Of a stretch of 64,000 nt of DNA, positions 5,064-43,336 are shown in pieces; positions within the stretch are counted from its first letter, which is position 1; every line of letters starts with the position of its first letter. The stretch is from an uncultured Candidatus Saccharibacteria bacterium (GTDB taxonomy: Bacteria > Patescibacteriota > 4484-211 > JAGQKX01). The notes beneath the pieces are model-generated. The model was not told where the DNA came from. It saw nothing but the letters and a program-made list of their open reading frames with translations, and searched no databases. The stretch is taken from contig CAYMOT010000001.1 in assembly GCA_964392315.1 (NCBI GenBank), positions 359,318 through 423,317 on the forward strand, given 5' to 3'. A program made the translations under genes and the position numbers.

Positions 5064-5792
5064 ATGGACCTGAAAAACAAAGTTGCATTGGTTACTGGTG
5101 GATCGAGTGGCATAGGGCAGGCTATTGCTATTGCCTTGGCACAAGAGGAATGTACAGTAATCTTTACTTATAATACAAACGAAAAGGGAGCGGACGAAAC
5201 GTTAAAGCAACTTGGTGATACAGCTGCAAAATTTAAGGTTGAGATGCACAATGAGGAGGAGGTTACCGAGTTGTTTTCTTTTATAAACTCAAGTTATGGG
5301 AGTCTCGACGTTTTGGTTAACAATGCCGGTATCAATAGGCCGAGAGGGTTGTTTGACCCACAAGACTGGAGAGAAATTTTTGAAGTGGATTTGTTTTCGA
5401 TAGTTTTAACCACGGGGCTCGCAGTCGAGATGATGAGAAACGGGGGGAAAATAGTAAATATCACTTCTATCTATGGAGAGGCGAAAGCTTGTTATAAGGG
5501 GATCGCACCGTATGGTGCAGCGAAAGCGGCACTCAATCATTACACGCAGATTCTGGCCAAAAATTTAGCCCCGAATATATTAGTAAATGCAATTGCTCCT
5601 GGGTATGTGCGAACACCATTGTGGGGAAACAAAACAGAGGAAGAATTCCAAGATGCCGGTAAAGAACAACTAATTGGACGAATGATCAAGCCAGAAGAAA
5701 TCGCTGACATGGCAGTGGCAATCATCAAGAACGATGCAATGACTGGGGAAATTGTTGTCATTGACGGAGGTATTTCTTTGAAAACTGTCTAA
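5064..5792 (+). CDS. SDR-family oxidoreductase (FabG-like)
   Basis: TGGSSGIGQAIA cofactor-binding motif, NNAG, and catalytic YGAAK. Confidence 0.85.
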   Translation: MDLKNKVALVTGGSSGIGQAIAIALAQEECTVIFTYNTNEKGADETLKQLGDTAAKFKVEMHNEEEVTELFSFINSSYGSLDVLVNNAGINRPRGLFDPQDWREIFEVDLFSIVLTTGLAVEMMRNGGKIVNITSIYGEAKACYKGIAPYGAAKAALNHYTQILAKNLAPNILVNAIAPGYVRTPLWGNKTEEEFQDAGKEQLIGRMIKPEEIADMAVAIIKNDAMTGEIVVIDGGISLKTV

Positions 5793-5801
5793 GCAGTTAC
5801 T

Positions 5802-6791
5802 ATGAAAATTGAAATTAGAACAGTAGGAGAGCTACTCATTAACGCACTACTAAACAAAAAATTTTCACGAGAGGAGGCAGAGATTGTGGCGGATGATTAC
5901 TTAGAAGGAGAGCTTCTAGGGAAACCGAGCCACGGATTGATGGCGTTCCCTGGTCTTATTGAGAAACTAGATGGGAAACGGCAGCCGTATGAGATCATAA
6001 AACAATCCCACTCTTGTGTCTTAATAGATGCAAAAGAATCACATGGCGCATACGTCGGGAGAAAGGCTGCTGATATGGCCATTGACATGTCAGAACGTGA
6101 AGGTGTGGGTGTTGCATTGATTAAAGACCAGATGACCTGGCTGCGGCCAGGAGGCATTGCGCAATATGTAGCGGATAGAGGATACATAGGTATAGTGATG
6201 AATAACGGAGGGAAACCAATGATGGCGCCACCTGGAGGATATGATCCGGTCATTGGTACCAATCCAATAGGTATAGGAATTCCGACGGATGCTGATCCAA
6301 TCGTGGCTGACATGGCAACGTCAATTAAGGCATGGGGCGAGGTGAAAATGGCAGAAAATGAGAAGAGGAAACTTCCGGAAGACATGTTTTTAGATAACCA
6401 GGGAGCGTTTGCAGCTAACCCGGAAGACGCGTATTCAGTACTACCGGCGGGTGGGTATAAAGGATTCGCCTTTGGGCTTTTGGTTGAAATTCTGACGGGA
6501 TCATTTCTCGGCAGATTAATGGGACCTGCACAGATGAACAGCGATTATAAAAAGTTAACAAGAGGTGGGGTAATACTCGTTTTGAATTCGAATTTTGGTA
6601 CAACGGTAGAGTTGTTTAGGTCGGCCAATAGTGAACTTGTTAATAACATAAGATCTTCTAGAAAGCTAAAAGATGTAGATGAGATTCTCGTTCCTGGTGA
6701 GAGTGCATTGAGAACGAAGCGTGCGTTTGAGAAGGATGGATGCATAGATATTGACAATACGTTATGGGAGCGGCTTGAAGGTTTGGCCTAA
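5802..6791 (+). CDS. Ldh_2 family malate/L-lactate (sulfolactate-type) dehydrogenase
   Basis: 329 aa with ..KPSHGL.. and ..IGTNPIGIGIP.. motifs typical of the Ldh_2 (PF02615) family. Confidence 0.6.
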   Translation: MKIEIRTVGELLINALLNKKFSREEAEIVADDYLEGELLGKPSHGLMAFPGLIEKLDGKRQPYEIIKQSHSCVLIDAKESHGAYVGRKAADMAIDMSEREGVGVALIKDQMTWLRPGGIAQYVADRGYIGIVMNNGGKPMMAPPGGYDPVIGTNPIGIGIPTDADPIVADMATSIKAWGEVKMAENEKRKLPEDMFLDNQGAFAANPEDAYSVLPAGGYKGFAFGLLVEILTGSFLGRLMGPAQMNSDYKKLTRGGVILVLNSNFGTTVELFRSANSELVNNIRSSRKLKDVDEILVPGESALRTKRAFEKDGCIDIDNTLWERLEGLA

Positions 6792-40870: not shown

Positions 40871-40944
40871 TGCGGGATCGTCTAATGGCAGGACGCCTGA
40901 CTCTGGATCAGGTAATCTAGGTTCGAGCCCTAGTCCCGCAGCCA
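40871..40944 (+). tRNA. tRNA-Gln (anticodon CUG) with encoded CCA
   Basis: Manual cloverleaf: acceptor UGCGGGA/UCCCGCA (the U1-A72 pair typical of bacterial tRNA-Gln), U8, D-stem GUCU/GGAC, G18G19, anticodon stem CCUGA/UCAGG, loop CUCUGGA (U33, anticodon CUG 40903..40905, G37), T-arm CUAGG-UUCGAGC-CCUAG, discriminator G73, CCA. Confidence 0.85.
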
Positions 40945-40960
40945 GGCGTATAATCACTAC

Positions 40961-42517
40961 ATGAAAAATAATGGTTATCGTATTGTTAAGTACTCTCTCA
41001 TTGCCCTCGCGGTTGCCGGCCTTTTGGATTCACTGTATCTTACGTACGAGCATTTCAGCGGTACGATCCCTCCTTGTTCCGTAGGAGGACTGTTTGATAA
41101 TTGTGGTACCGTGCTTCGCAGCGAGTATGCTGAAATAATTGGAATACCAGTTGCGCTGTTTGGTGTTCTCCACTATTTCTTGTTAACTTCAATGTTGACT
41201 CTTGGTTATGCGTATGCACAGCAGTGGGCAATAAGATTTGCATTGGTGCTAACCATGATTGGTTTTTTGGGGTCTGGGTATTTTGTATACATCCAATTGT
41301 TTGTTCTCCGTGCGTTATGTCTCTACTGTATGATTTCTGCGATTATTTCTTTAGTGCTTCTAGTTTTGGTATGGGGCTTTGAGAGAAGGGCACGTACAGA
41401 ACTTTTCGCAGGTATCGTTGCTAATTTTTACACAAAAGTACTGAAGAGAATATTCTTTCTTTTAGATCCTGAATATATCCACACGAAAATGGTTACGCAG
41501 GGAGAATTGCTCGGGAGGTCTCCACTAAGAGGAGTCCTTGCGTGGGGTCTTGCGTACAGACCAACATCTTTGGCACAGGAATTAGCGGGAATTACATTTC
41601 TTGCCCCCGTTGGACTTGCCGCTGGGTTTGACTATAATGCACAGCTAACGCAGATATTGCCGAGTATTGGCTTTGGGTTTCATACGATTGGAACGATCAC
41701 CGCGCAAGCCTGTGAAGGGAACCCAAAACCTCGCTTAGGAAGACTGCCACGTTCACAATCACTAATGGTAAATAAAGGATTTCGTAATCCAGGAGTCGGT
41801 GCAATCGTACGTCGTTTGCAGCCCTACACATTCTCAATTCCAGTTGGCATTAGTATAGGACGAACAAATAGTGATGCACTCAATGACGTAGATGATGCTA
41901 TCGCCGATATATTGCAGGCATTCCGGACGATTGATGCGGGTTCACTTACACATGCATATTATGAATTGAACATCAGTTGTCCTAACCTAAAAGGAAGTGT
42001 CAGTTTTTACGAACCCGAATCTTTGCATAGGCTTTTATCTGCAATCAAGACAGTGCACCTCGAAAGACCCGTATTTGTAAAAATGCCAATAGAAAAATCT
42101 GACGATGAATTTTCGGCAATGCTTGAAGTAATTACTGCCTCTCAGGTGGTATCGGGAGTGATTATTGGGAATCTCCAGAAAAATCGGCAGGATGCTTCGT
42201 TTGATATCAACGAAGTATTGCGTTTCCCAAAGGGTAATTTCAGCGGCAAACCTACGTATATACGCTCGAATGAGTTGATCAAACTTACCTATCGACAATA
42301 TAAAGACACCTTGCCTATCATTGGATGTGGAGGGGTGTTTTCAGCGCAAGATGCGTATACAAAAATTACGTTGGGCGCCTCACTAGTTCAGCTTATTACT
42401 GGACTTGTGTACAGAGGACCGCAACTGGTAGCTCAGATTAATCTCGGGTTGGAAGCCCTGCTAAAGAAAAATGGTTATGAGCATATTGCTCAAGCAATAG
42501 GTTCAGCACATACGTAA
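40961..42517 (+). CDS. pyrD: VKOR-domain / dihydroorotate dehydrogenase (quinone, class 2) fusion protein
   Basis: The N-terminal ~150 aa has VKOR topology and motifs: loop Cys pair ..PPCSVGGLFDNCGTV.., ..GIPVALFGVLHY.. and a TM-embedded CxxC (CLYCMISA). The C-terminal ~360 aa is DHODH class 2: ..FLLDPEYIHT.., ..GLAAGFDYN.., ..NISCPN.. and ..IIGCGGV... Confidence 0.7.
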   Translation: MKNNGYRIVKYSLIALAVAGLLDSLYLTYEHFSGTIPPCSVGGLFDNCGTVLRSEYAEIIGIPVALFGVLHYFLLTSMLTLGYAYAQQWAIRFALVLTMIGFLGSGYFVYIQLFVLRALCLYCMISAIISLVLLVLVWGFERRARTELFAGIVANFYTKVLKRIFFLLDPEYIHTKMVTQGELLGRSPLRGVLAWGLAYRPTSLAQELAGITFLAPVGLAAGFDYNAQLTQILPSIGFGFHTIGTITAQACEGNPKPRLGRLPRSQSLMVNKGFRNPGVGAIVRRLQPYTFSIPVGISIGRTNSDALNDVDDAIADILQAFRTIDAGSLTHAYYELNISCPNLKGSVSFYEPESLHRLLSAIKTVHLERPVFVKMPIEKSDDEFSAMLEVITASQVVSGVIIGNLQKNRQDASFDINEVLRFPKGNFSGKPTYIRSNELIKLTYRQYKDTLPIIGCGGVFSAQDAYTKITLGASLVQLITGLVYRGPQLVAQINLGLEALLKKNGYEHIAQAIGSAHT

Positions 42518-42523
42518 AACACT

Positions 42524-43336
42524 ATGCTAGAAACAACTCAGCTCGTTTCGCATACTGACTTAATCGATTTAACAGGAAAAACTGCTATTGTAACCGGTGC
42601 GGTTGGCATTGGGTATGCGATTGCGTATCGTTTTGCAGAGGCAGGGGCAAATGTCGTCATTGCAAGCCTTATCAAAGAAGCAGCAGAAGAAACGGCGAAT
42701 AAACTAGTTGAACAGGGCTGGAAGGCAACAGCGGTGCAGACCGATGTGTCACAAGAAGATCAGGTGCAGGTTATGGTGCACGAAGCGGTTTATCTATATG
42801 GAAGTGTTGATATTTTAGTAAATAATGCCGGGATTTATCCTGCGGTACCGTTTTCTCAGATGACATTGGCTGATTTTAAAAAAGTGCTTGCGGTAAATTT
42901 GGAAGGAGTATTTCTTTGTACAAAGTACGTATCTGAGCAAATGATTTCACAACGCAAGGGAGGCAAGATAATCAACATTACTTCAATCGATGCACTGCAT
43001 CCATCATCGATTGGGCTTGCCCACTATGATGCATCCAAACATGGAGTGTGGGGCTTTACAAAAAACATAGCACTTGAGCTTGCCGCCCATAAAATTTGGG
43101 TGAACGCAATCGCACCAGGTGGTATCATTACCCCAGGTGTACAAAACGCCCAAGAAGGCGGAGCGGAAGGTGCAAATCAGCAGGAAGCCATAAAAACATT
43201 TCTTGCAAATATACCAATGAAGCGATTTGGAGAAGCAGATGAAATTGGTAAAGTCGCTCTGTTTTTGGCATCAGAAATGTCATCCTATATGACTGGTGCT
43301 CAGATTGTTGTTGACGGTGGTGTGTTACTGTCTTGA
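42524..43336 (+). CDS. SDR-family oxidoreductase (glucose-1-dehydrogenase-like)
   Basis: TGAVGIGYAIA, NNAG and catalytic YDASKHG. Confidence 0.85.
   Translation: MLETTQLVSHTDLIDLTGKTAIVTGAVGIGYAIAYRFAEAGANVVIASLIKEAAEETANKLVEQGWKATAVQTDVSQEDQVQVMVHEAVYLYGSVDILVNNAGIYPAVPFSQMTLADFKKVLAVNLEGVFLCTKYVSEQMISQRKGGKIINITSIDALHPSSIGLAHYDASKHGVWGFTKNIALELAAHKIWVNAIAPGGIITPGVQNAQEGGAEGANQQEAIKTFLANIPMKRFGEADEIGKVALFLASEMSSYMTGAQIVVDGGVLLS

Follow-up and report, generated by a model that had tools for sequence, protein, structure and literature searches.

Vitamin K epoxide reductase (VKOR) constitutes a widespread protein family within the Candidate Phyla Radiation (CPR), and its genes adjoin those of MdbA-like oxidoreductases in 88 of 750 CPR genomes (Meheust et al. 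2019, PMC6744442); dihydroorotate dehydrogenase (DHODH) is not mentioned in that study. CPR genomes have been described as devoid of respiratory complexes, quinones and quinone biosynthesis, with quinone scavenging proposed, and ubiquinol oxidase operons are on record for some soil Saccharibacteria, Parcubacteria and Doudnabacteria. Rare fungal class-II DHODHs with cysteine as the catalytic base are found in low-oxygen niches and serve respiration-independent pyrimidine synthesis; one of them uses free flavins, and in another the cysteine is required anaerobically (Bouwknegt et al. 2021, PMC8520639). The same work gives the potential of DHODH-bound flavin mononucleotide (FMN) as -242 to -330 mV (PMC8520639). 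Here we describe a gene that joins a VKOR domain to a class-2-type DHODH in one reading frame. It lies in a stretch of 64,000 nucleotides (hereafter, the window) from contig CAYMOT010000001.1 of assembly GCA_964392315.1, positions 359,318 to 423,317, deposited as an uncultured Candidatus Saccharibacteria bacterium.

A first reading of the DNA letters without database searches (the original prediction) had proposed this fusion and considered it undescribed. This is borne out as far as the literature found reaches, though such sequences are abundant in public databases: we found no published description of a VKOR-DHODH fusion, including in a VKOR phylogeny and a 2026 VKOR paper, our coverage being incomplete and the result an absence of evidence. 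The in-frame fusion itself was confirmed. Every motif quoted in the original prediction is present in the 518-residue product, namely PPCSVGGLFDNCGTV (residues 37-51), GIPVALFGVLHY (61-72) and CLYCMISA (120-127) in the VKOR half, and FLLDPEYIHT (166-175), GLAAGFDYN (218-226), NISCPN (337-342) and IIGCGGV (453-459) in the DHODH half. Searched separately with hidden Markov models (HMMs), both halves gave significant matches over the domain limits listed in Table 1, to PF07884 (98.6 bits, the cut-off being 27.5; E=4e-28; profile positions 3-134 of 134) and to PF01180 (DHO_dh, 180 bits, E=8e-53), and for both the Pfam and NCBIfam matches exceeded the curated cut-offs. An identical 518-residue product is encoded on 14 contigs that were assembled independently of one another, with several sequencing runs as their source, and the start methionine M1 is kept in 92% of family members. 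No missed stop or frameshift, a concern raised at the outset, is present at the junction of the domains, whose length is constant in 121 sequences. The joined VKOR and class-2-type DHODH are thus confirmed as a genuine gene, and its product is one polypeptide with two halves that, by sequence and fold, are catalytically competent.

The fusion is conserved across many ultra-small CPR bacteria of the Microgenomates type, in several candidate phyla. A search of 5.8 billion proteins returned 120 best matches that, without exception, measured 500-545 residues and contained both Pfam domains. Setting aside one 96% near-identical copy, the nearest homologue is 57% identical. A scan of GTDB species representatives, seeded with peptide words of this protein and therefore a sample rather than a census, yielded 47 loci, about 31 of which carry VKOR and DHODH in one open reading frame (ORF); only two copies (L044 and L050) are broken, in both cases by frameshifts. 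The fusion-bearing lineages comprise Roizman-, Woese-, Gottesman- and Levybacteria and WWE3. Judged by these relatives and by the distance to the nearest homologue, the source organism is probably a thinly sampled CPR bacterium of the Microgenomates type. The original prediction had allowed that the fusion might prove common and already annotated. It is common, and its Pfam domains are precomputed in the databases, but the source names read only "quinone-dependent DHODH" or "hypothetical". As a separate observation, many of the GTDB-representative metagenome-assembled genomes among L008-L054 are titled "uncultured Gammaproteobacteria bacterium", and L014, whose gene order is common to Roizmanbacteria loci, is titled "Weeksellaceae bacterium"; these titles look like placeholders or mis-binning rather than taxonomic spread of the fusion.

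The VKOR half has the features by which the family is recognized: a full-length profile match, a four-transmembrane (TM) core with a loop helix, a loop cysteine pair with a serine, and a CxxC on TM4. Family-averaged hydropathy places the TM helices at residues ~11-29, 62-82, 92-113 and 118-139, with no fifth segment, and an AlphaFold2 model built from a 57-sequence alignment has helices in this part at residues 2-33, 64-85, 88-115 and 121-140. When residues 1-150 were compared with PDB sequences using phmmer, the best match was Synechococcus VKOR (4nv2/3kp9, E=1e-9), with TM1-TM4 aligned and the CLYC of the fusion opposite CMYC. C39, C48, S54, C120 and C123 are invariant in all 121 sequences of an alignment that comprised the query and 120 homologues 50-57% identical to it, and the first three are also kept in 128 stand-alone VKOR relatives. 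The hallmarks named by the original prediction (loop cysteine pair, conserved serine, CxxC at the start of TM4) are hence not only present but invariant in the family. The cysteine loop is modelled at a lower predicted local distance difference test (pLDDT) score, ~71, consistent with mobility.

This half resembles two described groups of VKORs. With the VKOR-thioredoxin (Trx)-like fusions, represented by Synechococcus VKOR (3kp9/4nv2) and plant LTO1, it shares the four-TM core, the cysteine pair, the serine and the CxxC, as well as the principle of joining VKOR to a redox partner. In those proteins, however, a fifth TM helix brings the Trx-like donor to the outside, whereas the VKOR-DHODH protein has no fifth TM helix and carries, on the cytoplasmic side, a flavoenzyme that would itself reduce quinone. 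It also has all invariant positions in common with the four-TM VKORs that occur as stand-alone proteins in CPR and Actinobacteria and re-oxidise MdbA (Meheust 2019, and Luong 2017 as cited there). In contrast to the fusion, these proteins end ~29 residues past the CxxC without a DHODH, and some adjoin MdbA-like genes, while we found no such neighbour beside the fusion. Compared with stand-alone VKORs, the fused domain appears to have no fusion-specific changes in its catalytic residues. The VKOR-DHODH architecture differs from known VKOR fusions, with both halves belonging to known families.

Residues ~156-517 of the fusion correspond to a complete class-2-type DHODH. Two NCBIfam equivalogs for quinone-dependent DHODH pass their cut-offs (NF003652, 281 against 267; TIGR01036, pyrD_sub2, 233 against 200), whereas class-1 DHODH models reach only ~74-90 bits against cut-offs of 269-330. 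The best phmmer matches among PDB sequences were class-2 enzymes, first that of M. tuberculosis (8ofw, 3e-49), then those of rat, human and E. coli, and the DHODH part of the AlphaFold2 model superimposed on full-length 8ofw with a template modelling score of 0.95 and a root-mean-square deviation of 1.6 A. With the class-2 enzymes of E. coli (PyrD, 1f76), M. tuberculosis (8ofw) and human (1d3g), the fusion shares 31-33% identity over full chains and the N-terminal two-helix domain with the histidine of LLDPExxH; H174 aligns with the tunnel histidine in the rat LLDPESAH motif. It differs from them in having Cys instead of Ser as the base, in an N-terminus that continues from a four-TM VKOR, in a variable tunnel arginine position and in a host lineage reported to be without a respiratory chain or quinone synthesis. 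The motifs GNP, NKG, N337-I-S-C340-P-N342, N404, G457-G458 and T480-G481, invariant in the query and all 120 homologues, are probably FMN- and orotate-binding by homology with class-2 DHODHs. Equivalog HMMs of the TIGR01036/PRK05286 type, PDB matches and fold superposition thus uphold the assignment to the quinone-dependent type. The N-terminal tunnel region had been suggested to be replaced or extended by VKOR, and it is not replaced: alignment to the class-2 profiles of NCBIfam already starts at profile position 2-3 (residue ~156-160), which indicates that the region is kept behind VKOR. The tunnel helices are retained and the DHODH is extended.

One departure from canonical class-2 enzymes lies in the active site. 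ELNISCPN of the fusion aligns with VVNVSSPN of the M. tuberculosis and rat enzymes, so that Cys340 stands opposite the catalytic serine; the NISCPN motif, initially taken for an ordinary class-2 hallmark, in fact has this serine replaced, and the class-2 signature of a serine base (NxSSPN) is absent. Although a cysteine base is typical of class 1, class-1 HMMs stay below their cut-offs, an N-terminal extension is present, and we found no PyrK-like gene beside the fusion. The DHODH half is best filed as a class-2-type, Cys-base variant rather than as canonical class 2. C340 is invariant in 121 of 121 fused sequences and in all 12 unfused CPR relatives. Because the unfused CPR DHODHs all carry NISCPN, the cysteine base, present in every CPR DHODH examined, marks the clade as a whole and is not tied to the fusion. 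We found no description of this trait for CPR DHODHs in the literature. By analogy with the fungal Cys-type class-II enzymes, it may represent an adaptation to respiration-free life and not a consequence of the fusion. The fungal SjUra9, DbUra9 and ArUra9 (PMC8520639) likewise combine a class-2 scaffold with a cysteine base, their function having been assayed whereas that of the CPR enzymes is read from sequence. They are, however, eukaryotic, of independent origin and without VKOR, and ArUra9 has lost the N-terminal quinone domain that the CPR enzymes kept. Within the tunnel helices, Y157, F166, H174 and G181 do not vary in either group of CPR DHODHs, with or without the fusion, and the position matching the mammalian/human tunnel arginine (in NPRPR-VFRL) varies between R, M, Q and L.

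The strongest sign of integration between the two halves is the junction. From C123 to the invariant Y157 there are exactly 33 residues in 121 of 121 sequences, and the spacing of Y157 and H174 is 16 residues in 119 of them; the cysteine loop, unlike this fixed junction, varies in spacing from 6 to 11 residues. In the AlphaFold2 model (mean pLDDT 94.4, predicted template modelling score 0.91, junction pLDDT 96-97), the TM4 helix (121-140) is followed by a single non-helical residue and then by helices 142-165, 170-186 and 189-197. The indel-free junction of fixed length speaks for an interface under constraint and against a passive tether. The dedicated coupling of VKOR and DHODH proposed by the original prediction is plausible, and it is strengthened by the rigid, indel-free junction.

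Charge distribution allowed us to orient the protein in the membrane. Lysine and arginine residues average 1.9 per sequence at the N-terminus, 2.65 in the TM2-3 loop, which is 8 residues long, and 3.2 immediately past TM4, as compared with 0.5 in the TM3-4 loop. The K/R-rich junction points to the cytoplasmic side, and the predicted topology is N-in/C-in, with the cysteine loop and CxxC extracytoplasmic and the DHODH cytoplasmic, on the side of its substrate. By this positive-inside analysis, which is a prediction, the active-site cysteines face outward in the bacterial orientation of VKORs. The VKOR quinone site would then lie beside the CxxC in the outer leaflet, by homology, and the DHODH tunnel mouth, judged from the topology, in the cytoplasmic leaflet, so that a quinone head group would need to cross the bilayer to visit both. 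A DHODH tunnel that opens directly onto the VKOR quinone site, as had been envisaged, is not supported, since the predicted topology sets the two sites at opposite membrane faces.

Both halves have free-living twins within the CPR. The 12 unfused CPR DHODHs recovered in the GTDB scan come from Saccharibacteria, Sungbacteria, Liptonbacteria and some Levybacteria; their identity to the DHODH half, 49-57%, is on a par with that of the fused homologues, and no VKOR was found within 10 kb of them. In a neighbour-joining tree of the DHODH part, fused and unfused forms are mixed and the topology is star-like and unresolved. A search with the VKOR domain alone against 1.84 billion cluster representatives gave 936 matches at E<=1e-10. 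Among the best 150, which were inspected, 128 are stand-alone VKORs of 130-180 residues and 35-51% identity, about 13 are fused or are fusions cut by contig ends, and none contains a Trx domain. The stand-alone proteins share all invariant positions of the fused domain; two of them score 147-164 bits against an HMM of the fused family, equal to fused domains, and one is annotated from a Candidatus Microgenomates bacterium. No second VKOR besides the fusion was found in the sequence examined (the 64-kb window and +/-10 kb around matches). Among the same 150 matches, P0170 (237 aa) has an S24/S26 signal-peptidase fragment N-terminal to its VKOR domain; this is a further VKOR fusion or else two genes merged in gene calling.

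Taken together, our preferred reading, which we hold tentatively, is that of a bifunctional membrane enzyme whose halves would share one membrane quinone. The organism probably scavenges this quinone. The DHODH half would oxidise dihydroorotate on FMN and pass two electrons to quinone that enters the tunnel on the side of the cytoplasmic leaflet. At the outer leaflet, the VKOR half would reduce quinone with electrons that an exported partner of the thioredoxin fold (MdbA/DsbA-like) delivers to C39/C48 and that pass from there to C120/C123; this is the role in which stand-alone CPR VKORs are thought to act. The fusion would give an otherwise peripheral DHODH a permanent membrane anchor and would hold its tunnel mouth beside a quinone-binding protein, which may matter where quinone is scarce. 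The quinol could be re-oxidised by a further acceptor, either trace O2 or another partner.

Several points weigh against a shared quinone. It is hard to see what catalysis would gain from joining two quinone reducers that draw on the same oxidised quinone, and the terminal acceptor is left unaccounted for. By a rough estimate, the electron flux of pyrimidine synthesis far exceeds that of disulfide formation, so that a small shared pool would be mostly reduced, and VKOR would be impeded in the direction it usually takes. A junction so strictly fixed suggests closer integration than plain anchoring would call for. Quinone use by the fused DHODH is itself unproven, given the variable tunnel arginine position and the quinone independence of some Cys-base fungal class-II enzymes. 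Finally, a search of the window and of the 10 kb on either side of the fusion in about 45 genomes yielded neither a Trx/MdbA-like partner nor a quinol oxidase nor a quinone-related gene.

An alternative that answers some of these objections, and that we nevertheless regard as unlikely, is a serial trans-membrane conduit acting as a dihydroorotate:disulfide oxidoreductase, in which DHODH would reduce a captive, scavenged quinone and VKOR would run in reverse to re-oxidise the quinol. The quinol, formed at the cytoplasmic leaflet, would travel to the VKOR site at the outer leaflet, and its electrons would pass to the CxxC disulfide, to the loop pair and on to an extracytoplasmic disulfide or other oxidant. 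VKOR would in this case be the missing quinol re-oxidiser or, put otherwise, dihydroorotate would feed reducing power to the cell surface. A quinone reducer and a quinol/disulfide exchanger make a complete pathway, which two reducers do not, and the rigid, indel-free junction, the confident inter-domain model and the invariance of all four VKOR cysteines fit such a pathway. So does the reported lack of quinol oxidases and respiratory complexes in CPR: the ubiquinol oxidase operons of the soil study are from Saccharibacteria, Parcubacteria and Doudnabacteria, with none reported for Microgenomates, where DHODH is fused, and in our sample DHODH is unfused in Saccharibacteria and in Sung- and Liptonbacteria, two lineages of the Parcubacteria group. 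The potentials are ~-258 mV for dihydroorotate/orotate, ~-74 mV for menaquinone and ~-120 mV for DsbA-type disulfides. Since DHODH-bound FMN lies at -242 to -330 mV, the transfer from dihydroorotate to disulfide would be downhill overall, and the uphill step from quinol to disulfide would be small if the quinone were mostly reduced; with a high-potential quinone, however, the reverse step becomes strongly uphill. To our knowledge, every characterised VKOR/DsbB homologue is a thiol oxidase and quinone reducer, and the reverse direction has no precedent that we know of among these enzymes. Nothing in the residues of the fused VKOR sets it apart from stand-alone CPR VKORs, we found no external acceptor or partner near the gene, unfused CPR DHODHs of the same clade work without VKOR, and protein disulfides alone would, by the same rough estimate, be too few to take up the electron flux of pyrimidine synthesis. 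DsbD/CcdA proteins bring cytoplasmic reducing power to extracytoplasmic disulfides through thioredoxin-driven cysteine relays, with neither quinone nor flavin. They are a conceptual analogue for the conduit only, with an unrelated fold and mechanism.

It is also rather improbable that the VKOR serves DHODH as an anchor only, the DHODH being a quinone-independent, Cys-base enzyme with a soluble or other non-quinone acceptor such as free flavin, fumarate or O2. No more probable in our view is the corollary that VKOR forms disulfides on its own and that the fusion reflects a genome-streamlining merger, a tether or co-expression. The cysteine base common to fused and unfused CPR DHODHs, the variable tunnel arginine position and the failure to find a conserved operon partner accord with this explanation, and the existence of equally close unfused DHODHs and of stand-alone VKORs indicates that neither half needs the other. 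In the fungal system, free FMN or FAD serves ArUra9 where decylubiquinone does not, and DbUra9 functioned better with fumarase mutations (PMC8520639). Yet the quinone-independent ArUra9 lost the very region that is retained here with invariant Y157, F166 and H174. In addition, a 33-residue junction that stays indel-free across ~50%-identical sequences, and a fusion that persists across several candidate phyla, argue against mere tethering.

Far less likely still is a DHODH that acts as the electron sink of VKOR, with quinol re-oxidised via the tunnel and FMN and with orotate or a fumarate-like acceptor reduced at Cys340. This would solve the acceptor problem of disulfide formation without respiration, and the cysteine base is a class-1 trait, class-1A enzymes reducing fumarate at the same site. 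Against it, DHODH-bound FMN lies ~170-250 mV below menaquinol/menaquinone, making electron transfer from quinol to FMN strongly uphill, running dihydroorotate oxidation backward would defeat pyrimidine synthesis, and ArUra9, with its Cys base, showed no fumarate activity (PMC8520639). An artefact, in which a missed stop, a frameshift or a chimeric assembly merged two genes, is refuted: the frameshifts that split L044 and L050 are outweighed by the recurrence of the same protein on 14 contigs from several runs, by the continuous ORF in 120 of 120 best matches and ~31 GTDB species, by equal junction lengths in 121 of 121 sequences and by the packing of the junction as helices at pLDDT 96-97.

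The genomic surroundings of the fusion (Table 1) offered no fixed partner. Clustering of ORFs from the 47 loci revealed no recurring Trx/DsbA, quinone or pyr gene, and the 64-kb window itself lacks genes for quinone biosynthesis and respiration, Trx/DsbA-like genes and any other pyr gene. The two most recurrent neighbour "families" were rejected as antisense shadow ORFs inside the fusion gene, and thermonuclease-like, NUDIX, ABC and VIT1-like neighbours were rejected as partners because of patchy synteny. An amine-oxidase-like gene lies directly upstream of the fusion in L014, L025 and L030 and 0.5-3.5 kb off in the other five loci that carry it. We set it aside as lineage synteny, since these eight loci form one Roizmanbacteria-like subclade and no such gene occurs in the window; it may be a coincidence or a lineage-specific redox partner. 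L056 has an Amino_oxidase gene next to a stand-alone VKOR, and its product shows no detectable homology to the fusion-linked ones. A 233-residue ORF adjoining stand-alone VKOR in L058-L060, without a Pfam match and of low-complexity sequence, is probably a spurious call.

In the window, a tRNA-Gln gene ends 16 nt before the start codon of the fusion. This adjacency is not kept in relatives, where tRNA genes are often nearby in no fixed arrangement. Between the tRNA gene and the ATG there is a TATAAT-like hexamer and no obvious Shine-Dalgarno sequence, which suggests that the fusion is co-transcribed with the tRNA or has a near-leaderless mRNA. A scan for promoters and terminators gave counts no higher than the shuffled expectation. 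The short-chain dehydrogenase (SDR) gene downstream starts 7 nt past the fusion stop and is possibly co-transcribed with it, but it is absent beside the fusion at the other loci examined. The membrane protein that follows (GPSFIILALGLGSGEVILWPF...) resembles NRAMP-type transporters by eye. More broadly, the gene set of the window comprises a sortase, DUF11 and A2M-like surface proteins, pyruvate kinase, PPDK, Ldh_2, SDRs, histidine kinases and aminoacyl-tRNA synthetases, and looks Gram-positive-like and fermentative. Two SDR genes together with a malate/L-lactate dehydrogenase of the Ldh_2 type (5064-6791 and 42524-43336, plus strand), as well as pyruvate kinase and PPDK, fit fermentation; none of them has a link to the fusion in other genomes. 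The large surface protein encoded just upstream on the minus strand contains a HINT/intein-like module at residues ~1032-1163, between its bait-region domain (860-993) and A2M domain (1178-1248). The insert starts at ...GAA/CFTGDTPI and ends at ...IYVHN/SKDG, and it resembles a mini-intein housed in a protein of alpha-2-macroglobulin type. In L005, a similarly huge minus-strand gene without a Pfam match precedes the fusion.

Table 1 Features of the VKOR-DHODH fusion gene and its surroundings (positions are those of the window).
Feature	Position	Strand	Details
VKOR-DHODH fusion gene	40961..42517	+	518 aa plus stop, single uninterrupted frame; ORF list, Pfam, NCBIfam
VKOR domain, residues 13-138	40997..41374	+	Four TM helices and short loop helix (48-53); PF07884
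Extracytoplasmic loop Cys pair C39...C48 (electron-shuttle pair)	41075..41104	+	Conserved Ser54 and Tyr56 just downstream
CxxC active site C120-L-Y-C123	41318..41329	+	Outer end of TM4; invariant 121/121
Junction, residues 140-157	41378..41431	+	Cytoplasmic end of TM4, one-residue break, start of first DHODH helix
DHODH N-terminal helical "quinone tunnel" domain, residues 142-197	41384..41551	+	Class-2, retained; invariant Y157, F166, H174, G181
DHODH FMN/orotate-binding barrel, residues 204-501	41570..42463	+	PF01180
Active-site motif N337-I-S-C340-P-N342	41969..41986	+	Cys at catalytic-base position; alignment to class-2 enzymes
tRNA-Gln(CUG)	40871..40944	+	ARAGORN; sets 5' limit of fusion gene
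Short-chain dehydrogenase (SDR) gene	42524..43336	+	adh_short/adh_short_C2
Polytopic membrane protein, 467-479 aa	43333/43369-44772	+	Overlaps or closely follows SDR gene; no Pfam match
Surface protein, 1790 aa	35419-40791	-	Big_5, MG2, A2M bait-region and A2M domains; just upstream of fusion
FAD amine-oxidase-family oxidoreductase, 430 aa	Upstream of fusion in other loci	Same as fusion	PF01593, 103 bits; L014, L017, L024, L025, L026, L030, L031, L051

These results bear on how CPR bacteria are annotated and on how they may handle electrons. Annotation of such proteins as plain "quinone-dependent DHODH" hides the VKOR half, and metabolic reconstructions may miss VKOR or over-read DHODH as evidence of a quinone pool. 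The clade-wide cysteine base of CPR DHODHs extends a pattern documented experimentally so far only in anaerobic fungi. Should the serial conduit prove true, it would explain a quinone-type DHODH in Microgenomates without respiration or quinone synthesis, and the fusion would contain the first VKOR homologue known to act as a physiological quinol-driven disulfide reductase. In either case, the fusion offers a single tractable protein for three questions: the identity of the electron carrier, the destination of the electrons and the reversibility of VKOR. CPR bacteria keep two types of enzyme that are quinone-dependent in every organism studied, VKOR for the disulfides of surface proteins and pili and a class-2-type DHODH for pyrimidines, and a rigid, conserved fusion links these two normally quinone-dependent reactions in cells reported to be without a respiratory chain.

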